Of a stretch of 64,000 nucleotides of DNA, positions 10,720-56,868 are shown in pieces. The DNA comes from an uncultured Gammaproteobacteria bacterium (GTDB taxonomy: Bacteria > Pseudomonadota > Gammaproteobacteria > UBA9214): the NCBI GenBank assembly GCA_963773065.1, contig CAVYZN010000021.1, positions 1-64,000 of the forward strand, in the 5' to 3' direction. Made by a program: the position numbers and the translations under genes. A model generated the notes under the pieces. The model saw nothing but the letters and a program-made list of their open reading frames with translations, was not told the origin of the DNA and did not search any database. How positions within the stretch are numbered: position 1 is the stretch's first letter; each line of letters starts with the position of its first letter.

Positions 10720-11975
10720 ATGGCGAAAACCCATTCACGGGTGCTATCCGGAATGCGTCCCACCGGGCGCCTGCACCTCGGCCACTATCATGGCGTCCTC
10801 AAGAACTGGGTCAGGTTGCAGCAGGAATTCGACTGTTTCTTCTTCGTGGCCGACTGGCATGCGCTCACCACGCACTACGAGGAATCGCACATCATCGCCG
10901 AGAGCGTCTGGGACATGGTGATCGACTGGCTGGCGGCGGGCGTCGACCCGGAGTCCGCGCAGTTGTTCATCCAGTCGCACGTACCGGAGCACGCCGAGCT
11001 GCATCTGCTGCTTTCCATGGTGACGCCGCTCGGCTGGCTGGAACGGGTGCCGAGCTACAAGGACCAGCAGGAAAAGCTGCGGGAACGGGATCTCGCCACC
11101 TACGGCTTTCTCGGTTATCCGCTGCTGCAGAGCGCCGACATCCTCATCTACGGGGCCGACAAGGTGCCGGTCGGCGAGGACCAGGTGGCCCATGTCGAGC
11201 TGACCCGCGAGGTGGCGCGGCGCTTCAACCATATCTTCGGGCGTGAACCGGGTTTTGAGGAGGCCGCCGAGACCGCCATCAGAAAGATGGGCAAGAAGAA
11301 CGCGCGCCTCTACCATGACCTGCGCAAACGCTACCAGGAGCAGGGGGAACGCGAGGCGGTGGCGGTGGCGCAAGCCCTGCTTGAGGAACAGCAGAACCTT
11401 TCCCACAGCGACCGCGAACGCCTGCTCGGGTATCTCGAGGGCAGCGGTCGGCATGATCCTGACCGAGCCGCAGGCCCTGCTCACGCCGGCCTCCCGCATG
11501 CCCGGCCTGGACGGACAGAAGATGTCCAAGTCCTACCACAACACCATCACCCTGCGGGAAAACCCGGAGGATGTCCGGCAAAAATTGCGCACCATGCCGA
11601 CCGACCCGGCGCGCATACGCCGCACCGATGCCGGGAACCCCGATGTCTGCCCGGTATGGCAACTGCATGCGGTTTATTCCGATGAGGCCGTGAAGGCGCT
11701 GGGTGCGGGAGGGCTGCACCACGGCCGGGATCGGTTGTCTGGAATGCAAGCAGCCCATCATCGACAGCATACTCGGCGAACTCGCGCCCCTGCAGGAACG
11801 GGCGCGGGAGTACGAACAGGACAGGGATCGGGTGCGCGCCATCATCGCGGAAGGATGCGAGGCCGCCCGCGCCGTCGCCCGCGAAACGCTGGCAGAGGTG
11901 CGCGCCGTCATGGGGCTGGATTACTCGCCGAAGAACCTGATAGGAAATCGAGACATCCCTTCGAAACTGGGTTAG
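10720..11975 (+). CDS. trpS: Tryptophan--tRNA ligase (two apparent frameshifts)
   Basis: SGMRPTGRLHLGH, VPVGEDQ, GLDGQKMSKS, GIGCLECK over three frames. Confidence 0.92.
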
Positions 11976-46812: not shown

Positions 46813-47724
46813 ATGGATAGAAAAGTTACGAAAGCGGTATTCCCGGTTGCGGGCCTGGGTACACGTTTCCTGCCGGCTACCAAGGCCAACCCCAAGGAAA
46901 TGCTACCCATCGTCGACAAGCCACTGATTCAGTATGCGGCGGAAGAGGCGGTCAAGGCAGGTATCAATGAGTTGATTTTCGTAACGAGCAGCAGCAAGCG
47001 TGCCATTGAAGATCATTTTGACAAGAATTATGAGCTGGAAACGGAACTGGCGCATCGAGGTAAAACCAAATTGCTTTCCATTGTTCAGAATGTCGTTCCG
47101 GAACATATCACCTGCGTCTATGTACGCCAGCCCGAAGCTCTTGGTCTGGGTCATGCCGTGTTGTGTGCAAGGCCGGTGGTGGGCGATGACCCCTTTGCAG
47201 TGATACTGGCTGACGACCTGATCGAGTGTGCTGATGAGTGCTGTCTAAGCCAGATGGTTGCCGTATATAAGGAGCACGGGTGCAGCATACTCGGTGTGGA
47301 AGAGGTGCCAAGGAATGAAACTGACAGGTACGGAATTGTGGATCCTGCCTCATCCAGCGGTCGCAACAGCTTCGTAAGGAATATCGTGGAAAAACCAGCG
47401 CCTGAAGTAGCCAAATCTAACCTGGCTGTAGTGGGACGTTACATACTCAACCCAAGAATCTTCGCGCATCTGCAAACGATTCCACGCGGTGCCGGTGGAG
47501 AGATACAACTTACCGACGCCATAGAACAATTGCTGAAGGAAGAACAGGTGCTGGCGTATCGCTTTAAAGGCAAGCGCTATGATTGCGGCAGCAAACTGGG
47601 CTATCTGCAGGCGACAGTTGAGTACGCGCTGAGACACCCAGAACTGCGCGATGCTTTTCGTGAGTATCTGGTGGCTGAATTGGGTATGAAGGCAGACAAG
47701 GGCCTACTCAGAATCAGCAACTAA
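46813..47724 (+). CDS. galU: UTP--glucose-1-phosphate uridylyltransferase
   Basis: [34 protein letters not shown]. Confidence 0.96.
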
Positions 47725-48566: not shown

Positions 48567-49034
48567 ATCGGTTCACCCAAAAGCTGTTTTCATCTGATAC
48601 TACACCCGAGGGGTATTTCAGGCAGAGAAATGCACCGCGATTTCCATTAACGGGGCATAATATCCCGCTCCGACACGGAATTGATAAAGCGGGGAATGTT
48701 GTGTAACTCTTTGATTGTGGCCCGGGACGGGCTCAAACTGATCATATAACTACATGTAATACAATAAATATATCTTGTGTTGATAATGCGTATGCCCCAA
48801 ATGTGCCCCCAATGCATTATTGTACCCTGCTCGTTAGATAATGCTAAATGGCCGGAAACGACCCTAAGTTGCCGTTTAGTCGATGATTATATAAGCAGTG
48901 CCTTAACGAGAAAGAACGGCCTAATGCGAACATGCATGACATGCGGAGCGAGGGTATTTCTGGCTAACATTATTCAATAACAATCACTGCCCGGTAATCC
49001 AGCCAGAACGACATGCTCAGAATTAAGAGATGAG

Positions 49035-50950
49035 GTGAATAAAGAGATGGATGGGATCAAGGAGAAAATTTATCTGGACTTGCTCCATGGCGAGAGAATA
49101 CCGCAGGACGGGCAGGCTGTTGCACCAGTTCATCCTCTGGAGGCAAATGCGAAAGTGGCTCGCGGACGACGGTCTCAGCTTCTGTCCACTAGACAGAAGC
49201 TAGCTTGGTTGATGCTTGGCGTGGTTTCCGGTGCACTGATCGTTATCGTGGCTTGGTGGCCTGAATTGAACGAATTGGCAGGTGGCGCAGGAGTCAAGGG
49301 GATGGTAAGCAGTTTGACGGAGCATCGACAGTCTGGCGAGCTACCGGCACAATCTTTCACGACAGAAGAAACCAGAGGAGATCTCAAACAGGGTGTCATA
49401 TCCCGGCTGGAATTACTGCCACCCACGGCTGCTGGTATGGGGAACGACAGTACTTCGGCGGGCAAGGATAAAGACAAGTCCAGGAATACTACGAGCAGTA
49501 CACTCCTTGCAAAATCAGACAACCTTCCTGTTACTACCCAAGTTCAGCCACATGAAACAATAAGTGATACTGACCCAGCAATGAGTGCAGTGCTAGAGGC
49601 GGAAGATACCTTGGCGCGCTTGCAAAAACTGGCTGAGTTCGGAGATGCCAAGGCACAAAACATCCTTGGGGTGATGTACGCCACCGGCGATGGCGTGCCG
49701 AAGAATGCTGCCAAGGCAGCAGAGTGGTATCAGAAGGCGGCGGGGCAGGGAGATGCCAAGGCACAATACAACCTCGGAATAATGTACGCCACCGGCGATG
49801 GCGTGCCGATGGACCATGGTAAAGCCATGGAATGGCTTCAGAAGGCAGCCGCGCAGGGAGATGCCAGCGCACAATTCAAACTCGGAGTGATGTACAGAAG
49901 CGGCGATGGCGTGCCGAAAAATGCCGCCAAGGCAGCAGAGTGGTTTGAGAAAGCGGCGGCGCAGGGAAATGCCGATGCACAACTCAACCTGGGGGTGATC
50001 GCCACCGACGATGGCATGCCGAAGAATGCTACCAAGGCAGCAGAGGGGGATAAGAAGTCGGCGACGCAGGAAGATGCCAAGGCACAGCACAACCCCGGAA
50101 TAATTATGCCACCGGTGATGGCGTGCCGTTGAACCCTGGTAAAGCCATGGAACGGCTTCAGACGGCAGCCGCGCAGGACGATGCCAGCGCACAGTTTAAA
50201 CTCGGGTTGATGTACAGAAGCGGCGAAGGCGTGCCGAAGAATGCCGCCAAGGCAGCAGAGTGGTTTGAGCAGGCGGCGGCGCAGGGAAATGTCAATGCAC
50301 AGTTCAACCTCGGGGTAATGTACAGAAGCGGCGAAGGCGTGCCGAAGAATGCCGCCAAGGCAGCAGAGTGGTTTGAGCAGGCGGCGGCACAGGGAAATGT
50401 CAATGCACAGTACAACCTCGGGGTGATGTATGACACTGGCGATGGCGTGCCGATGGACTCTGCTAAAGCCATCGAATGGTTTCAGAAGGCAGCGGCGCAG
50501 GGAGATGCCAAGGCACAGAACAAAGTCGGAATAATGTATGCCACTGGCGATGGTGTGCCGATGGACCCTGCTAAAGCCATGGAATGGTTTCAGAGATCGG
50601 CGATGCAGGGATATTCAAACGCACAATTAAACCTCGGGATGATGTACGCCACCGGCGATGGCGTGCCGAAGAATGCTGCCAAGGCAGCAGCGTGGTTTCA
50701 GAAAGCGGCGGCGCAGGGAGATGCCGGCGCACAATTCAACCTCGGGGTGATGTACAGAATCGGCGAAGGCGTGTCGAAGGATTTGATATTAGCCTATGCA
50801 TGGTTGAATCTGGCTGCGATACAGGATATTGAGAATGCATCAAAAACACGTGACATGCTCGAATTGAATTCAGTCCAGCGTATAGAGGCGGAGCGTATGT
50901 CATCTAATTGGAAAACTGGGCAAGTGCTACAGCGGGATGGCGTGCCATAG
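49035..50950 (+). CDS. Membrane-anchored Sel1-like repeat protein (frameshift near 50105)
   Basis: One TM; many 36-aa AQxNLGxMYxxGxGVPKxxxKAxEWxxKAAxQG repeats; terminal AYAWLNLAA. Confidence 0.88.
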
Positions 50951-51430
50951 CTGCCGTTCACTCCGTCATGACGAACCTCTCTGATCTTCAGTCTCGAAAT
51001 CTGAATGGCATCGCCTTCAACCGCGGGGGCTTGTCTCGCGAACTTGACGCTTACGGTGAACCAGAGGCCGCGGAGTTGATGAAAGTAGTCAGCCCGGAGA
51101 AGCAAGCCGAGATCTCAGCCCGGGCAATGACGATCCTGCTGAGAGTCTTGCATTATCGATAAGGCGATTTGCCTTGCGGCCGTGGAGGTTTTCTTCGGCG
51201 AGGTCCGTCCCTTGCGACGCAAGCGACGCGTGTATCCTAAGAGCTGACGGCCACGCGTCGGAGGGGCAGCTAACTAACCCTTGCACCCGACCAGGGCACG
51301 CTGCTCCACTCTCGCATTCGTGATACGCTCTCGGGCGTGCCCTGACGGCTGATGGGCAGGGCGTTAAGGTCCGAATTCAGGAAATTTAGCCAGCTCTTCT
51401 ATTCGGATCGGCTAATTGGCGAGAGACGAC

Positions 51431-51572
51431 CCAGCCTGTGTGAAAACTCACGCTGAAGGACGCCGCGCAAAATTCAGGCTTCACCAGAGGCGCGTAGCGC
51501 CACGATCGGCGCGTGAGGAGAGGTTTCGGTACCCCCTGTATTTCGATTATTTCGAGTTTTCACACGGCCTGG
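51431..51572. mobile_element. ~142-bp MITE with IS1182-like ends
   Basis: IRs CCAGCCTGTGTGAAAACTC / GAGTTTTCACACGGCCTGG (17/19 match), no ORF. Confidence 0.65.
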
Positions 51573-51576
51573 ACCC

Positions 51577-52846
51577 TGAAGTGGTCCCCAAATTATGGAC
51601 AGGGGGATAAGCTCTGACTTTCCGAAGAGAGGAAGGACGACGATGAGTCAGAAGCGCAAGCAATACCGAGCGGATTTCAAGGCCAAGGTAGCCTTGGAAG
51701 CCTTACGAGAGGACATGACCGTGGCCCAGCTTTCGCAGAAACACGGCATTCACCCCACCCTGATTAACCAATGGAAGCGGCAATTGCTGGAACACGCCCC
51801 TGCGGCCTTCGCCCGTGGGGAGTATAAGGACGACACGACGGCTGTCGTTGCCGAGCTCTACCGGCAGATCGGGCAGCTCAAGGTGGAATGCGATTTTTTA
51901 GCCGGCAGGCCCGGGATCAATCCCTTGCGAAGAGGCGTGCGATGATCGACCGGGCCTATTCCCCATTGAGCGTCGTGCGCCAGTGTGAACTGCTCGGCGT
52001 CAGCCGTGCGGGGCTGTATTACCAACCGGCGCGCGAGAGCGAAGAGAACCTGGCCCTGATGCGGCTGATTGACGAGCAATACCTCAAGACGCCGTTCTAC
52101 GGCAGCCGTCAGATGAGGAACCACCTTGTGCGGCTGGGATATAAGGTCAACCGCAAGCGGGTGCAACGGCTGATGGCGCTCATGGGATTGCAGGCGGTGG
52201 CGCCGGGACCACACACCAGCCTCCCGCATCCGCAGCACAAGGTTTATCCGTACCGCTTGCGTGGCATGACCATCGACCGCCCCAACCAGGTCTGGGCCAC
52301 GGACATCACCTATATCCCGATGGCCAAGGGCTTCATGTATCTCATTGCGGTGATGGACTGGGCGACCCGCAAAGTGTATGTCCTGGCGGGTCTCCAATAC
52401 CCAGGACACGACCTTCTGCGTCGAGGCGTTGAAGGAAGCCTTGCTCAACTACCGCAAACCGGAGATCTTCAACACCGACCAGGGCAGCCAGTTCACGAGT
52501 AGCGAGTTCACTGGTCTGCTCATGACCTGGGGTGTTGAGATCAGCATGGACGGTCGCGGGCGCTGCCACGATAACATTTTCGTGGAGCGTCTTTGGCGCA
52601 CGGTGAAGTACGAGTGTATCCACCTCAACGCCTTTGAAGACGGTCGCTGCCTGCGGGAGGTGCTGGGGTAGCTACTTCGACTGGTATAACCAGGAGAGAC
52701 CCCACACGGCGCTAGGAGGCGAAAGCCCGGATACCCTATACTTTGGCAAACAGGAAAACCAACCCCTGGCAGCCTGAGCCAGACAACAACCATGAGTCAG
52801 AGCTTATTCCACCTCCCAGGCTGTCCAAAGGATGGGGTCCACTTCA
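51577..52846 (+). mobile_element. IS3-family element, 1270 bp
   Basis: IRs TGAAGTGGTCCCCAAATTATGGACAG / CTGTCCAAAGGATGGGGTCCACTTCA; CCC duplicated on both sides. Confidence 0.9.
51643..52671 (+). pseudogene. IS3 transposase orfA (51643-51945) and orfB (frameshift near 52378, early stop)
   Basis: FKAKVALEAL; YGSRQM, WATDITYI, FNTDQGSQF, DNIFVERLWRTVKYE. Confidence 0.85.
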
Positions 52847-53146
52847 CCCATTAGCATCATCGCGCGATTACGGTTGTGCCTTTCGTTGTGATTACCCGCT
52901 TTGCCGCGACACGGGCGAGCGCTGCCTCCCGAGCCACCCCGGCAGGCACCACTGCGTTTTCCCTATCGCTGTGCTCTGAACTTTCCACCGTTGCGCTTCA
53001 CCAAACAGTGTGACTGGGTTGTGTTCGCAGAGCGCGAACATCCGCTGATCGAATCGCGATCGCAGTCACTGCCCCGGTTGGCAGGACAAGTTTTAATTTA
53101 TTTAATTTCAGTTGGTTGAAATTTCTTCAGGCGGAACGGACCGGAT

Positions 53147-53162
53147 TGGCACGGCTTCTGCT
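53147..53162 (+). promoter_or_regulatory. sigma54 (-24/-12) promoter
   Basis: TGGCACGGCTTCTGCT = GG-N10-GC; AT-rich tract upstream. Confidence 0.75.
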
Positions 53163-53240
53163 CTTTACCAGTCATGAGTGCCGAGGCGCTCATGACCCAA
53201 ACCCACAACCTTTGACAACGTTAGACTTAGGAGAACTACC

Positions 53241-53486
53241 ATGATGACGATTAAAGATCTTTCCGTAAGCAAGGAACTCGACCGTAAGGCCATGACCGAA
53301 GTGCGTGGCGGTGGCGATGTCTTCTCGACCAATGCCCAGGGTTCATCCCAGAGCGCAGTCGGTGGCCTGGTGGCAGTCAACGAGAGCACCCAGAACCTGT
53401 TCTCTGCCAACAGCGCCGTCGACTATACGGATATCCAGAAGACGCTGGTTGCGATCGGCCAGAACAACGGCCTCGGGATATTCTAA
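53241..53486 (+). CDS. Double-glycine-leader peptide 1 (81 aa)
   Basis: AGGAGA RBS; IKDLSVSKELDRKAMTEVRGG leader; N/Q/S-rich core. Confidence 0.8.
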   Translation: MMTIKDLSVSKELDRKAMTEVRGGGDVFSTNAQGSSQSAVGGLVAVNESTQNLFSANSAVDYTDIQKTLVAIGQNNGLGIF

Positions 53487-53543
53487 CCGAAGAGAGGCAG
53501 CGATCCGCAGCGATTCGCGGATCCTTACCTCGCAGCACGCCAG

Positions 53544-53573
53544 AGCGGAGGTCTTCGGACCTCCGCTTTTTTT
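53544..53573 (+). terminator. Rho-independent terminator with cUUCGg loop
   Basis: AGCGGAGGTC-TTCG-GACCTCCGCT-TTTTTT. Confidence 0.9.
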
Positions 53574-53868
53574 GTTGTCGGTCGCGAACGTCGGGGTCTC
53601 AGGACCGGGATCAGCAGTAGTCTCGCCGGCGCTGAGTACGACGACTGGCCGGTGGTCTCCTCGGCGCAGGCGCTCGGGTCATCCCCGTCCAAGAGCTTGT
53701 CCTCCCGGCTGTCGCATGAGGACGAACTCCTCCTCCCGCGCTGTTGGCTACGGAACGACTCGAAGACCGGGGACGGCCGCCCATGGCATGGATGCGCGAC
53801 GGGCAGAACAATAAAATAGTATTTTTATTCAGCACCCTGTGTCGCACGACTCTGCACCGCGTGCGACT

Positions 53869-53884
53869 TGGCACGGCGCCTGCA
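53869..53884 (+). promoter_or_regulatory. sigma54 (-24/-12) promoter
   Basis: TGGCACGGCGCCTGCA = GG-N10-GC; AT-rich tract upstream. Confidence 0.75.
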
Positions 53885-53983
53885 CTCATCCCAGCGAGTC
53901 CTGACACGCTCAGCGACCGGGTGCAACCAACCCAACCGTTACCGACACCTGTTCCATTTATCATTGACTAAAGGAGATTCGAT

Positions 53984-54220
53984 ATGACCAATCTGTTGAT
54001 TAATGACCTCATAGTGAGCCAAGAGCTGGATCACGGCGCCATGCTGGCCGTGCGCGGCGGCACTGATCTGACCTCGTTCAACGCCCAGGCGCTGGCCGCC
54101 GAGGCCAAGGGGGGGATTGCGGCCATCACCGCCGCGACCCAAACCCTGGTGAGCCTGAATACCTCGCTCAACCTGGAAATTTCCCCGCAGACCAATGTCG
54201 TTCTGGGGGGCGTTGCCTAA
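53984..54220 (+). CDS. Double-glycine-leader peptide 2 (78 aa)
   Basis: AAGGGAG RBS; INDLIVSQELDHGAMLAVRGG leader; core aligns without gaps to peptide 1. Confidence 0.8.
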   Translation: MTNLLINDLIVSQELDHGAMLAVRGGTDLTSFNAQALAAEAKGGIAAITAATQTLVSLNTSLNLEISPQTNVVLGGVA

Positions 54221-54272
54221 GGGATACGTCCACGCGCCGGGTGGACCGGAGCGTCACCGTGCGCTAACCACC

Positions 54273-54302
54273 AGCGGAGGTCTTCGAACCTCCGCTTTTT
54301 TT
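54273..54302 (+). terminator. Rho-independent terminator, one mismatch from 53544-53573
   Basis: AGCGGAGGTCTTCGAACCTCCGCTTTTTTT. Confidence 0.88.
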
Positions 54303-54556
54303 GGGCATCCGCAGGGCATGGGGTGGGGGGCCGGTCGGCCGAGCCGGCGGCCAACCGGGGATGAGTTGCTAGTGTTTTCCCGATAGTTGTGCGCTAGCCG
54401 TAGCTACCCCTTGAGTGCTCCTATGCTTTCCGATGATCCAGTCGTAAAGGATATCTTACGGTTATGACCTGCCGGTCGCCGCGCTGATAATCAGATATCA
54501 AAAATCGGCTCGCGTTTATTGCTGCCCCTAAGCTCCGGCGTTATAAACGACAACTC

Positions 54557-55309
54557 TTGGCCGAAACTTGCCGTTCGGACACTGTAGCTGAAAGTAAAAC
54601 GATAAAAAGCTGGTTCGACTCGTTTGAACAAGGAAAGCCAGTTTCCCTAAAAAGTATTGTGCAAACTCCTGCACGCATAAATAGCCGGTTGGGTCGTGCT
54701 AAAGGAAAAATTGATGCGATCTACTCGCACCTTGGGCTCATCAATGTGGACCTAGAGTTGGCGACAAATTTAGGGGGCGCTACGCTTGCTCAGGCGAAGA
54801 AAAATTTCACTACAGTGCATCGCCGCTTGGTAAATGGACTCTCAGAGTTTGCGGAGAACGAATATGACCTCGTCCTGATTGACTGTCCGCCGAATTTCAA
54901 TATCGTGACGAAGACAGCGATCACTGCCAGCGATTTCTTGCTGGTCCCTGCTAGGCCCGACTACCTCTCGACGTTGGGCATTGAATACCTGATTAGGAAC
55001 GTGAAGGCATTGGTAAAGGACTACAACGATTTTACGGAACTCGGTCAAGGAGAGAAGGTTGATCCCATAAGACCGAAGCTGCTTGGCGTTGTATTCACAA
55101 TGATTCAGGAATACGGCGGTGGCCCAATGGCGGCACAGAGAGCTTTTATGGGCCAGCATCAAACTGCGGGCCTTTCCATATTTGACGCCTACATCAAACG
55201 AAACGACACGTTGTTTGCCGACGCGCCCCAATACGGGGTGCCAGTAGTGCTCAACAGATATGCCTCAGACACTCATCAAAGTGTTGACCCGATCAATTGC
55301 GACAGATGA
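54557..55309 (+). pseudogene. ParA-family ATPase fragment (no Walker A; C-terminus fused to recombinase remnant)
   Basis: YDLVLIDCPPN, ASDFLLVPARPDYLSTLG; lower GC than host genes. Confidence 0.75.
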
Positions 55310-56766
55310 GGGAATGGTGCCAGACAAATGGCCATGTCGTGGCCGTGGACTACGTGGAAGCCGGCGCGTCCGCCACCGATGACCGGCGACCCGTATTTCA
55401 GCAGATGATCGCCGAGGCGACGGGCAAGCCCTCGCCCTTCGAAGCTGTCATCGTGCACAGTCTTTCCCGCTTTTTCCGCGACTCCCTGGAATTTGGCCTC
55501 TACGAGCGCAAGCTCAACAAGTCCGGGGGCAAGCTCATCTCCATCACCCAGCAGACCAGCGATGATTCGGCCGGGGAGATGGCGCGCAAAATCTTCAGCG
55601 TGTTCGATGAATACCAGAGTAAGGAAAACGGTAAGCACACCCTGCGGGCCATGAAGGAAAACGCACGGCGGGGCTTCTTCAACGGCTCACGTCCTCCCTT
55701 TGGTTATCGCGTTCAGGAAACCGAGGCCCTGGGCAATCGTGGCAAGCGCAAGAAACACCTGGCGATTGACGCGGGCGAGGCGGCGACCGTGCAGCGGGTC
55801 TTCGATCTCTATCTCAACAGTTACCTGGGCGCGAAAGCCATCACGAGCAAACTAAATGACCAAGGCACTACCTACCGGGGCACCAAATGGACCCGCACCA
55901 AGGTGCATGAGGTGCTTTCCAACCGTGCCTACATTGGCGAGTTACCCTTCAATCGCAGGGACCACAAGACCGGCAAGGTGAAGCCGGAGTCCGAGTGGAT
56001 CACAATCGCGGTGCCGCCTATCGTGGATGCGGCTGTGTTTGACGCGGTATCGGCGCGCAAACACAGCTGCGCCCCAGCGGTTATCCCGCCTCGTGTCGTG
56101 GGCTCACCGACCCTGTTGACCGGCCTGCTTAAATGCGGTCACTGTGGGTCAGGCATGACGCTCGCCACCGGCAAGGGCTGACGCTATCGCTACTACAAGT
56201 GCAATACCCGAATAGGCAAAGGGAATCATCTGTGCGACTGTCCGACCGTCCCCATGGAGAAGCTCGACCAACTGGTTCTTGACGCCTTAGCCGAGAAAGT
56301 CTTCACGCCGGAACGGCTGCGCGTGCTGCTTCGAGAACTCAAGGCAAGGGTCAAGGCAGCGCAGAACGAAAATGCCGGTCAGCTCGGTGCCCTGAAAAAA
56401 GAGCTTGAAGCACTACAGACAACCACAGAGCGGCTTTATGATGCGGTGGAGAAGGGCATCCTTCCCCTGAATGCCTCACTGCAAGATCGCGCCCACAAAT
56501 TACAGGCAAGGCGACAGGACATTCTGACGGAGATGGCGGGCTACAAACGTCAGCAAGCCATGCCCTTGAGCAACCTGACACCCAAACAGGTGAGCGCCTT
56601 CAGTGCCGCCATGCGTTCCAGGCTGCACGACCGGGGAAGCAACTTCGGGAAAGAGTACCTGCGCCTGTTCGTCAACCGGATCAAGCTGACTGGCCATCAG
56701 GTTGAAATCAATGGCAGCTATGGCCCATTGGCGCAGGGGATAGCCCAAATGAAACGGGCGCCCTAG
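55288..56766 (+). pseudogene. Large serine recombinase, N-terminally truncated, internal TGA at 56179
   Basis: PDQLRQMREW, SATDDRRPVFQ, VHSLSRFFR, PPFGY, LTGLLKCGHCG, RYRYYKC, coiled coil; YxRVS catalytic motif absent. Confidence 0.85.
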
Positions 56767-56792
56767 GGAGAGTGCCCGTTTTTGTACCGGAT

Positions 56793-56868
56793 TGGCTCCC
56801 CGGGACGGGCTCGAACCGCCGACCTAGTGATTAACAGTCACCCGCTCTACCGACTGAGCTACCGGGGA
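56793..56868 (-). tRNA. tRNA-Asn (GTT)
   Basis: TCCCCGGTAGCTCAGTCGGTAGAGCGGGTGACTGTTAATCACTAGGTCGGCGGTTCGAGCCCGTCCCGGGGAGCCA. Confidence 0.97.

Follow-up and report, generated by a model that had tools for sequence, protein, structure and literature searches.

The window analysed here is a stretch of 64,000 nucleotides at the beginning of contig CAVYZN010000021.1 (C21) from the assembly GCA_963773065.1 of an uncultured gammaproteobacterium (G000), and the subject of this text is a pair of small paralogous genes in it, termed A and B, whose products share a leader ending in two glycines. The explanation that probably accounts best for the findings as a whole is that A and B encode unmodified double-glycine prepeptides from sigma-54-dependent units, that the pair is a satellite copy of a larger peptide array and that it depends on an exporter module acting in trans. 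According to this proposal a dedicated sigma-54 activator, probably controlled by Ser/Thr phosphorylation through a kinase, a PP2C phosphatase and an FHA protein, would switch on the genes. The helical leader would then insert its residues V-4, M-7 and L-12 in a C39 domain belonging to a peptidase/ABC exporter that also bears cyclic-nucleotide-binding domains, this C39 domain would cut after the two glycines, and the exporter together with a HlyD adaptor would release cores of 57 and 52 residues that are free of cysteine, nearly uncharged and rich in N, Q, S, T, G and A. In relatives the activator and exporter module is encoded beside the main array, from where it would act in trans. Cleavage, export and the extracellular role of A and B are predictions from sequence comparison.

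Both open reading frames (ORFs) are found where the initial annotation had placed them, and the leader pattern I-x-DL-x-VS-x-ELD-xx-AM-xx-VRGG that it had proposed is legible in both sequences. Its claim of a paralogy without gaps is borne out by BLASTP, which aligns A and B with 31 identities in 72 positions (43%), 0 gaps and an E value of 2e-17. The junctions between leader and core read ...EVRGG|GDVF in A and ...AVRGG|TDLT in B. The cores had been described as cysteine-free, non-cationic and rich in N, Q, S, T and A, which agrees with the counts for A and B (0 Cys in either; K+R = 1 in each; D+E = 4 and 3; N+Q+S+T 39% and 35%; G+A 23% and 27%). A Shine-Dalgarno site AGGAGA precedes each of the two genes, and GGAG is found ahead of nearly all members of the family. 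A and B are real genes and not chance ORFs, since they possess sigma-54 motifs, Shine-Dalgarno sites and terminators and since the core of A is constrained (see below). All mapped features of the pair and its surroundings are collected in the table.

Table. Features of the peptide gene pair and of the islet that carries it (positions of the window).
Feature	Position	Strand	Remarks
Gene A	53241..53486	+	81-aa prepeptide; leader residues 1-24 (53241-53312) ending RGG
Predicted mature peptide of gene A	53313-53483	+	57 aa
Gene B	53984..54220	+	78-aa prepeptide; leader residues 1-26 (53984-54061) ending RGG
Predicted mature peptide of gene B	54062-54217	+	52 aa
A/T-rich tract just 5' of promoter A	53090..53129	+	possible bending site for integration host factor (IHF)
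Putative sigma-54 -24/-12 promoter of gene A	53147..53162	+	TGGCACGGCTTCTGCT; motif match; conserved in L001
Stem-loop at predicted 5' end of A transcript	53173..53194	+	CATGAG...CTCATG; transcription start predicted
Shine-Dalgarno site of gene A	53229..53234	+	AGGAGA
Intrinsic terminator of gene A	53542..53576	+	GGAGGTCTTCGGACCTCC then T run; identical hairpin in L001
A/T-rich tract 5' of promoter B	53810..53832	+	conserved between the window and two L001 copies; possible IHF site
Putative sigma-54 -24/-12 promoter of gene B	53869..53884	+	TGGCACGGCGCCTGCA; motif match; conserved in L001 copies
Intrinsic terminator of gene B	54273..54303	+	GC-rich hairpin and T run; 97% identical to terminator of A
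Duplicated segment with A-B pair	52846..54506	+	paralogous to C8 291991-293751 (88-89% identity, blastn in own genome)
att-like direct repeat of tRNA-Asn 3' end	48721..48738		17/18 nt identical to 56799-56816; left edge of islet
Presumed IS3-like element	51604..52810	+	16-nt terminal inverted repeats 51604-51619 / 52795-52810, 94% complementary; transposase in two overlapping or frameshifted ORFs (51595-51945, 51888-52777)
Presumed ParA-like ATPase ORF	54557-55309	+	right-hand part of islet
Presumed serine-recombinase-like gene	55297-56181, 56254-56766	+	in two ORFs; right-hand part of islet
tRNA-Asn (GTT)	56793..56868	-	integration site of islet; contains repeat 56799-56816

The motif TGGCACN5YTGCW, typed here as the sigma-54 promoter pattern, occurs three times in the window as compared to 0.15 matches expected by chance, and two of these matches lie on the plus strand 95 nt (A) and 116 nt (B) 5' of the start codons. 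The third exact match (46990-47005, minus strand) lies within an ORF of the plus strand whose translation resembles a sugar-nucleotidyltransferase, and no obvious gene follows this match downstream. A scan for sigma-70 promoters detected no site 5' of either ORF, and rpoN is present in the genome. The motifs together with the individual terminators suggest that A and B form separate sigma-54-dependent transcription units. In the comparison of the window with two copies from a relative of the same genus (locus L001) promoters, 5' leaders and terminators are conserved, and the stem at the predicted 5' end of the A transcript is kept, a T-to-C change turning a G-U pair into a G-C pair. An A/T-rich tract is also found at the position of promoter A in L001, its sequence being only loosely conserved; at promoter B conserved blocks precede the A/T tract and further ones occur in the spacer between A and B. 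Following the usual layout of sigma-54 promoters, the A/T-rich tracts are possible IHF sites and the conserved spacer blocks may be binding sites of the activator. Among the leader ORFs examined in the family 50 of 96 have the strict sigma-54 motif at their 5' side. In gammaproteobacterial loci nearly every gene of the A, B and "GWIRP" types has its own motif, and in betaproteobacterial loci it is usually present only ahead of the first gene of a tight operon. One candidate for a small RNA over the A terminator, obtained in an Rfam scan of 52800-54600, was sub-threshold (22 bits as compared to 45) and was rejected.

Several features support the assignment of the leader as a double-glycine export leader, as had been claimed from its pattern alone. 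Counted back from the two glycines both A and B have V-4, M-7 and L-12, and in the crystal structure of the protease LahT147 with its leader the residues at -4, -7 and -12 are inserted in a hydrophobic groove (PMC6363468). An acidic E-L-D occupies the positions -13 to -11 in both leaders. Ten leader positions are invariant in 31 aligned sequences (D6, E12, L13, D14, A17, M18, V21, R22, G23 and G24), with cores that are hypervariable across the same set. Structure prediction with AlphaFold2 (AF2, alignment A1) yields a helix for residues 4-21 with a predicted local distance difference test (pLDDT) of ~72-74. Homologues that conserve this leader do exist: a word-indexed search found 46 small ones, all of them unnamed or "hypothetical", and a profile search, run against 1.84 billion cluster representatives, yielded 315 clusters with E<=1e-3, of which 31 reach E<=1e-10; almost all have a length of 50-200 aa. 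The leader hardly changes across the 315 clusters, and the cores differ strongly. The model TIGR01847 (bacteriocin_sig) does not match A and B in the NCBIfam scan at E<=10. It is passed by one of 18 peptides of relatives, namely L019:9989-10255 from Pararobbsia with 19.3 bits (cut-off 15.7), which ties the family to canonical double-glycine leaders. The leader models of NHLP and Nif11 gave no match for these leaders. A hidden Markov model (HMM) of the 24 leader residues, as the initial annotation had recommended, was built and run over six-frame ORFs, where it revealed tandem arrays both in the own genome and in relatives.

Peptide classes common to beta- and gammaproteobacteria are the A/B class, the "GWIRP..." class and a short basic class. 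The first gene of the gammaproteobacterial arrays, located beside the PP2C gene, encodes a short class-C peptide with the leader MA-x-IVIKDL and a basic/aromatic core of 34-38 aa (L001:6734-6925, L003:8287-8466, L014:6671-6865 and C22 76263-76451 in G000). It does not carry the strict sigma-54 motif that most genes of the A, B and GWIRP types have. The class-C peptide could be an inducer.

Selection acting on the pair can be traced by means of the paralogue on contig C22 of the same assembly. Copy A differs from it at 15% of the DNA positions and at only 1 of 52 core residues (98% core identity), corresponding to a rate of synonymous substitution (dS) of 0.33 and a ratio of nonsynonymous to synonymous rates (dN/dS) of 0.05. 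Compared with the C22 copy the core of A is, judged from these values, subject to strong purifying selection. Between the own genome and the same-genus locus L003 the core dN/dS is ~0.75, and between paralogues it reaches up to 1.6. Among the A and B genes of the window, L001, L002 and L003, dS of the leader codons is 0-0.25 as compared to 0.3-0.7 in the core, and between paralogues of one genome it is zero. The low leader dS suggests gene conversion or a constraint at the RNA level over the 5' part. In the sediment metatranscriptome library X20 three contigs, 95-99% alike, cover 53188-53476, which corresponds to the predicted 5' leader plus almost the entire ORF A. Parts of the window that have no RNA cover in X20, among them gene B and the spacers, carry no information. 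The metagenome contigs that contain this stretch are short fragments.

Evidence for a dedicated machinery comes from the neighbourhoods of homologous genes, which were surveyed with one genome per species by tblastn in 24 loci, with family names from Pfam and NCBIfam. The hosts are uncultured gammaproteobacteria (including Thiogranum, Sedimenticolaceae and Chromatiales bins) and betaproteobacteria, the latter represented by Aromatoleum, Noviherbaspirillum, Pararobbsia and a Burkholderiaceae isolate. According to the leader HMM in six-frame ORFs the leader genes occur almost always in tandem arrays of 2-8. An array contains two to four A genes that are nearly identical and individually equipped with a strong promoter and a terminator. 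The initial annotation had suggested to inspect such neighbourhoods for C39 peptidases and sigma-54 activators, and both were found. Beside the main array 10 of the 24 loci encode an exporter of ~1015 aa with two cyclic-nucleotide-binding domains, a C39 peptidase, an ABC membrane domain and an ATPase domain, and L005 shows the ABC part alone at its contig end. Immediately 5' of the exporter a sigma-54 activator is encoded (13/24 loci). Further members are a PpiC-type protein of 261 aa (9/24), a HlyD adaptor (9/24), a double-FHA membrane protein (8/24), a membrane Ser/Thr kinase (8/24), an FGE-sulfatase-family protein with SH3 and sometimes caspase domains (7/24) and, on the opposite side of the array, a PP2C phosphatase (12/24). 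The order activator-exporter-PpiC-HlyD-(FHA) is fixed in gamma- and betaproteobacteria alike, and the loci that lack the exporter are mostly short contigs or contigs ending in the array.

In this set of exporters the C39 parts share 75-95% identity with the one in L003, a degree of conservation that parallels that of the leader, and the domain aligns with PCAT1 with the catalytic residues Gln, Cys, His and Asp intact. With the model TIGR03796 the L003 exporter scores 543.6 bits, which is under the cut-off of 853.3. The PpiC-like protein is probably cytoplasmic because it has neither a signal peptide nor a membrane segment; it reaches 82 bits with TIGR04500 ("putative peptide maturation system protein"), the cut-off being 180. 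The kinase is of the membrane receptor type with a large extracytoplasmic C-terminal part and the FGE-family protein has an N-terminus resembling a signal peptide. Among the neighbours subjected to domain and membrane-segment scans (selected conserved ORFs of L003, L008, L012, L018 and L024) the kinase, phosphatase and FGE-sulfatase proteins look regulatory or periplasmic rather than peptide-modifying. The statement of the initial annotation that no modifying enzyme is present holds. Orphan copies of the peptide genes recur in other genomes at a distance from the exporter locus (L004 with L008, L016 with L007/L015 and L002 with L003), which supports the use of the exporter in trans. A family of 432-aa ORFs (e.g., L018:16033-17328) proved to be antisense to activator genes and was dropped. 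In L003 a 141-aa ORF (11387-11809, plus strand) is located between the B and "GWIRP" genes; its ribosome-binding site is a good one, its product has a signal peptide of twin-arginine-like type, and no counterpart was seen in the other arrays.

The pair in the window represents a satellite duplication of the A-B portion of a larger array and resides on an islet of ~8.1 kb at a tRNA-Asn gene. This follows from its different setting, with an IS3-like element on the left, a ParA-like ORF, a recombinase and the tRNA-Asn gene on the right and a repeat of the tRNA end at the far edge. The early suggestion that the pair is island cargo is supported by the same flanking elements. Based on the reading of their translations we take the insertion sequence to be of the IS3 type and the two genes on the right to be ParA-like and serine-recombinase-like, respectively. 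The homologous segment on contig C8 is listed in the table, and a second similarity was detected by blastn in the own genome between 52980-53469 of the window and C22 76622-77112 (85% identity); the C8 and C22 copies both stop at the contig end. Hits of the leader HMM in G000 include A and B in the window itself (C21), the copies A' and B' at the end of C8, of which B' is frameshifted, and, at the end of C22, a short class-C peptide and a truncated A''. Contig C22 is the native main locus since its array is preceded by orthologues of the L003 PP2C phosphatase (68%), membrane Ser/Thr kinase (56%) and FGE-sulfatase protein (58%), the last one being a periplasmic protein with caspase and SH3 domains as well. 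In the metagenome contig L046, whose A is 96% identical, PP2C is followed by A and then B, which represents the native order, and in the metagenome contigs L066 and L072 the peptide genes are followed by the activator and exporter genes.

Some observations on these contigs may be added. Apart from the peptide pair the islet (48721-56816) contains two Sel1-repeat genes, the IS3 element, the ParA-like ORF and the split recombinase. Nine tandem units of 108 nt (36-aa Sel1-type repeats, 49641-50908) extend across the ORFs 49035-50132 and 50123-50950, which seem to be the parts of a single repeat protein interrupted by a frameshift or by an error of the assembly. The C8 copy (292389-293528) shows G-K in place of E in the leader of A' (a one-codon change) and, near the beginning of B', a frameshift; these defects reflect either the decay of a third copy or indel errors of the assembly. 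On C32 (186622-186858, minus strand) a weak match of the leader HMM (E 1e-3) reads ...AEIRGG followed by a very acidic core of 47 aa that is unlike the array peptides and may belong to a different double-glycine peptide. Near the FGE-sulfatase gene of C22 (~69038-70003, minus strand) two tandem small periplasmic proteins with the motif HHHLLIDTD are encoded, a pair that is conserved in five loci (L001, L014, L018, L019 and the own C22).

A number of results weigh against the proposed system, foremost the lack of its exporter in this assembly (33 contigs, 90.9% complete, 6.3% contamination). The window encodes no C39 peptidase, in agreement with the initial annotation, which had noted that a local transporter is missing. 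In the whole of G000, too, the C39 model PF03412 has 0 matches, tblastn with the exporter of a relative finds no C39 part, and the exporter, PpiC-like protein, HlyD adaptor and FHA protein of the relatives are all without an orthologue. The best match to the activator in G000 is only 41-52% identical, like generic paralogues; a GAF-PAS activator (C22 ~66850-68757) that clustered with the relatives' activators at first is with 41% identity as distant as any paralogue and was discarded as the cognate one. If the absence of the module is real, A and B can be neither switched on nor exported in the proposed manner. Likewise, the same-genus genome G001 has eight peptide matches and no exporter of the cyclic nucleotide monophosphate (cNMP)-binding type in its assembly, its C39 protein being a different C39-ABC protein of 757 aa, and its array also ends at a contig end. 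At the level of the peptides, position -8 is Ala in both A and B and not the Glu of the ComA consensus (L-12 x3 E-8 L-7), and the AF2 model of the core, a long beta-hairpin at residues 27-59, is of low confidence (overall pLDDT 59.9). No Pfam or NCBIfam model matched A or B (NCBIfam none at E<=10; the sole Pfam line, at E 0.18, is noise). The cyanobacterial tandem bacteriocin domain (CTB, PF28158) is a neighbour in a language model only (0.87 with 139 shared features, below the reliable level), and it gave no match in the Pfam scan of A and B, for which a Pfam copy possibly older than that model was used. Finally, the RNA-library cover of A is only a hint of transcription, as DNA carry-over or a close relative could be its source.

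The initial annotation had made its proposal dependent on a C39 peptidase in the genome or near homologues. The former is formally missing, but this loses much of its force because both other array copies end at contig ends and because the same-genus genome G003 has an exporter fragment 91% identical to that of L003. Furthermore, in the same family G006 shows a 1021-aa exporter frame with 68% identity, and in 31 related genomes the peptides are found in 4 and C39 domains in 23. We think that the module of G000 is unassembled rather than lost, since repeats break assemblies and since the core of A is under purifying selection; this point is the main weakness of the whole explanation. The contrary assumption, namely that the pair was copied onto the islet by the IS element or recombinase, that the genome lost activator and exporter and that A and B are now decaying cargo, neither expressed nor exported, is improbable in our opinion. 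It can draw on the lack of a C39 peptidase and of a dedicated activator, HlyD or PpiC orthologue in the assembly, on the defects of the C8 copy (frameshift in B' and one-codon change in the A' leader) and on the nearby IS3 element and split recombinase. However, both copies in the window are undamaged and have promoter, ribosome-binding site and terminator in place, the core of A has a dN/dS of 0.05 at a dS of 0.33 against the C22 copy, and in an assembly that is only 90.9% complete with the other copies at contig ends the C8 defects may be assembly errors. Least likely of all, and quite improbable, is that the products are precursors of peptides that are made ribosomally and then altered post-translationally (RiPPs), modified by the kinase, the FGE-sulfatase-family protein or the PpiC-like protein before export. 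A conserved leader with a hypervariable core is typical of such precursors, the cores are rich in Ser and Thr, and the PpiC-like protein gives the weak TIGR04500 match (82 bits as compared to 180), a family found near graspetide loci (PMC8939145). On the other hand Cys and any recognisable motif for modification are missing from the cores, the scanned ORFs of L003, L008, L012, L018 and L024 include none of the radical-SAM, LanM, YcaO or ATP-grasp type, the FGE-family protein has a signal-peptide-like N-terminus, the kinase belongs to the membrane receptor type and the TIGR04500 score is far under its cut-off.

With export of unmodified peptides as the preferred basis, their role outside of the cell has to be considered. 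Tentatively, and with somewhat less than even confidence, we regard them as competition peptides resembling class II microcins. The canonical export route, the conserved leader with fast-diverging cores, the presence of several different peptides per locus and the copies on mobile DNA are in favour of this role. Against it speaks that no immunity-like membrane ORF with a ribosome-binding site was found beside the pair or in the arrays of four relatives in a crude hydropathy scan (ORFs of 25-150 aa in 52800-54600 of the window and in the arrays of L003, L008, L021 and L024; immunity could lie elsewhere). The hydrophobic ORFs at the window pair and in most arrays are only antisense to peptide genes and have no ribosome-binding site. 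Near-identical genes repeated within arrays are also unexpected for a classical microcin, as is the recurrence of the same peptide classes in beta- and gammaproteobacteria. The initial annotation had preferred an amyloid or a signal to a bacteriocin since the cores are not cationic. This argument does not discriminate, because class II microcins of Gram-negative bacteria are small secreted peptides defined by the C39-ABC export route that need not be cationic, and because two of them, MccE492 and MccAB1, form amyloid, the MccAB1 fibres being a scaffold of biofilm (PMC13188072). Nevertheless, an extracellular beta-rich, amyloid-like fibre or matrix, of which the cores would be self-assembling subunits exported via the C39-ABC/HlyD route, is a possible though rather unlikely alternative. 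In such a fibre the multi-copy A could be the major subunit and B, "GWIRP" and the short basic class the minor or nucleating parts, an assignment that is just as doubtful. The composition of the core classes is compatible with it (N+Q+S+T 25-40%, G+A 15-30%, K+R mostly 0-3, mostly Cys-free), several classes contain curli-like stretches of the type Q/N-G-x-G-N-x-A, and AF2 offers a beta-hairpin, albeit of low confidence. The two to four near-identical A genes per array with a strong promoter and terminator each, the same class set in both proteobacterial groups, the failure of the hydropathy scan to find an immunity-like ORF, the cytoplasmic PpiC-like protein beside the exporter that could hold aggregation-prone cargo and the amyloid precedent of MccE492 and MccAB1 (PMC13188072) fit this picture as well. 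The fast evolution of the cores (dN/dS ~0.75 against L003 and up to 1.6 between paralogues), in contrast, is more typical of peptides involved in conflict or recognition. Moreover, A and B are not homologous to the subunits of curli or Fap, and the predicted fold is weak. CsgG and the curlin repeat (PF03783, PF07012) have 0 matches in the genome, FapF not having been searched for, and a FapA model found nothing in the genome or in the control genomes and is hence uninformative. A complex prediction in which the core of A (residues 25-81, alignment A3) was entered four times, without controls, gave 0.02 as compared to a mark of 0.42 and has no bearing on self-assembly.

Extending the fibre alternative, the loci of beta- and gammaproteobacteria might represent a third route to functional amyloid besides curli and Fap, in which a Hanks-type kinase/PP2C/FHA circuit and a sigma-54 activator drive monocistronic genes for Q/N-rich, beta-prone subunits; this is clearly an unlikely construction. 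If it were true, the PpiC-like holder and a cyclic-nucleotide-gated C39-ABC/HlyD exporter would release self-assembling subunits, the class-C peptide could serve as a secreted inducer and satellites like the A-B pair of the islet would spread or diversify subunits. About equally unlikely is a role as signals, where the peptides, or some of their classes, would be exported and sensed by the periplasmic domain of the kinase, which in turn would induce the array by way of FHA protein and sigma-54 activator, i.e. a Gram-negative analogue of the peptide-pheromone circuits in Gram-positive bacteriocin and competence loci. The membrane Ser/Thr kinase, PP2C, FHA protein and sigma-54 activator conserved beside the arrays are what such a circuit calls for, and a class-C gene next to PP2C that does not have a sigma-54 motif fits a basal inducer. 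But cores of 50-78 residues are long for pheromones and many near-identical copies would be needless, the link between kinase and peptides consists of neighbourhood only, and A and B carry sigma-54 promoters, so that they resemble outputs rather than inducers.

Double-glycine peptides that leave the cell through C39-ABC transporters are well known, and those of Gram-negative bacteria are said to have been treated by Dirix et al. in 2004. The family presented here is one for which Pfam and NCBIfam hold no model. A search of open-access literature brought up no account of double-glycine peptide arrays driven by sigma-54, nor of their coupling to a Hanks-type kinase, PP2C and FHA proteins. For annotation this means that genes of 60-110 aa go unnamed wherever the source gives names, and that their repeats break assemblies. 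The system as a whole is more interesting than the pair in the window, which is a stray copy. Since cultured Aromatoleum, Noviherbaspirillum and Pararobbsia carry the family, experiments are possible in isolates; the other carriers are uncultured gammaproteobacteria of sediment and soil. The family provides a testable case for the regulation and gating of peptide export in Gram-negative bacteria.

Among known systems the one of A and B would work most like that of class II microcins and of double-glycine peptide export in general. Yet we do not file A and B in a curated family since no model matches them, the cognate exporter is not in the genome and no immunity gene was found. The class II microcins (MccV/CvaAB, MccE492 and MccAB1) are likewise small ribosomal peptides with a leader ending in GG, GA or GS that employ a C39-ABC transporter and a HlyD-type adaptor, as encoded in the relatives of the window pair, their secretion being of the PCAT/MFP type I kind, and they are reported to be widespread (PMC12219008). 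Their leader has ~15 aa as compared to 24-26 aa in A and B. They differ also in that here each gene has its own sigma-54 promoter and terminator, the hydropathy scan revealed no immunity ORF, the exporter has two N-terminal cyclic-nucleotide-binding domains, and the arrays, which hold several near-identical copies, have kinase, PP2C, FHA protein and activator as conserved neighbours. The resemblance to curli (CsgA/B) and Fap concerns only the Cys-free, beta-prone secreted subunits rich in Q, N, G, A and S and the logic of major and minor subunits, whereas the curli and Fap subunits use Sec and a dedicated outer-membrane pore instead of the ABC/HlyD route proposed here and have no sequence homology with A and B.

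NHLP/Nif11 systems with NHLM_micro_ABC1 exporters likewise combine tandem precursors, a conserved GG leader, divergent cores and a C39-ABC exporter, and the score of the L003 exporter with TIGR03796 given above, though under the cut-off, points to the same resemblance. In contrast with them, the leaders described here are short and without a match to the NHLP and Nif11 models, and no modification enzyme was found nearby. The Gram-positive ComC/ComA system and the two-peptide bacteriocins share the leader logic L-12 ... L/M-7 ... V/I-4 ... GG (PMC6363468). Production is inducible in Gram-positive double-glycine loci, as is proposed for the present ones, but sigma-54 with a Hanks-type kinase, PP2C and FHA proteins stands here in place of histidine kinase and response regulator, Ala instead of Glu is found at -8, and the cores are far longer than pheromones. 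The closest counterpart of the exporter is HetC from Nostoc PCC 7120, in which cyclic-nucleotide-binding, C39, ABC membrane and ATPase domains follow one another in the same order and which binds guanosine tetraphosphate (ppGpp) in vitro; it has no known substrate and no adaptor gene nearby (PMC10986499). Unlike HetC, the exporters of the relatives have two cNMP domains and adjoin both a HlyD gene and obvious substrates with a GG leader. The present family offers obvious natural substrates for C39-ABC exporters with cNMP domains.

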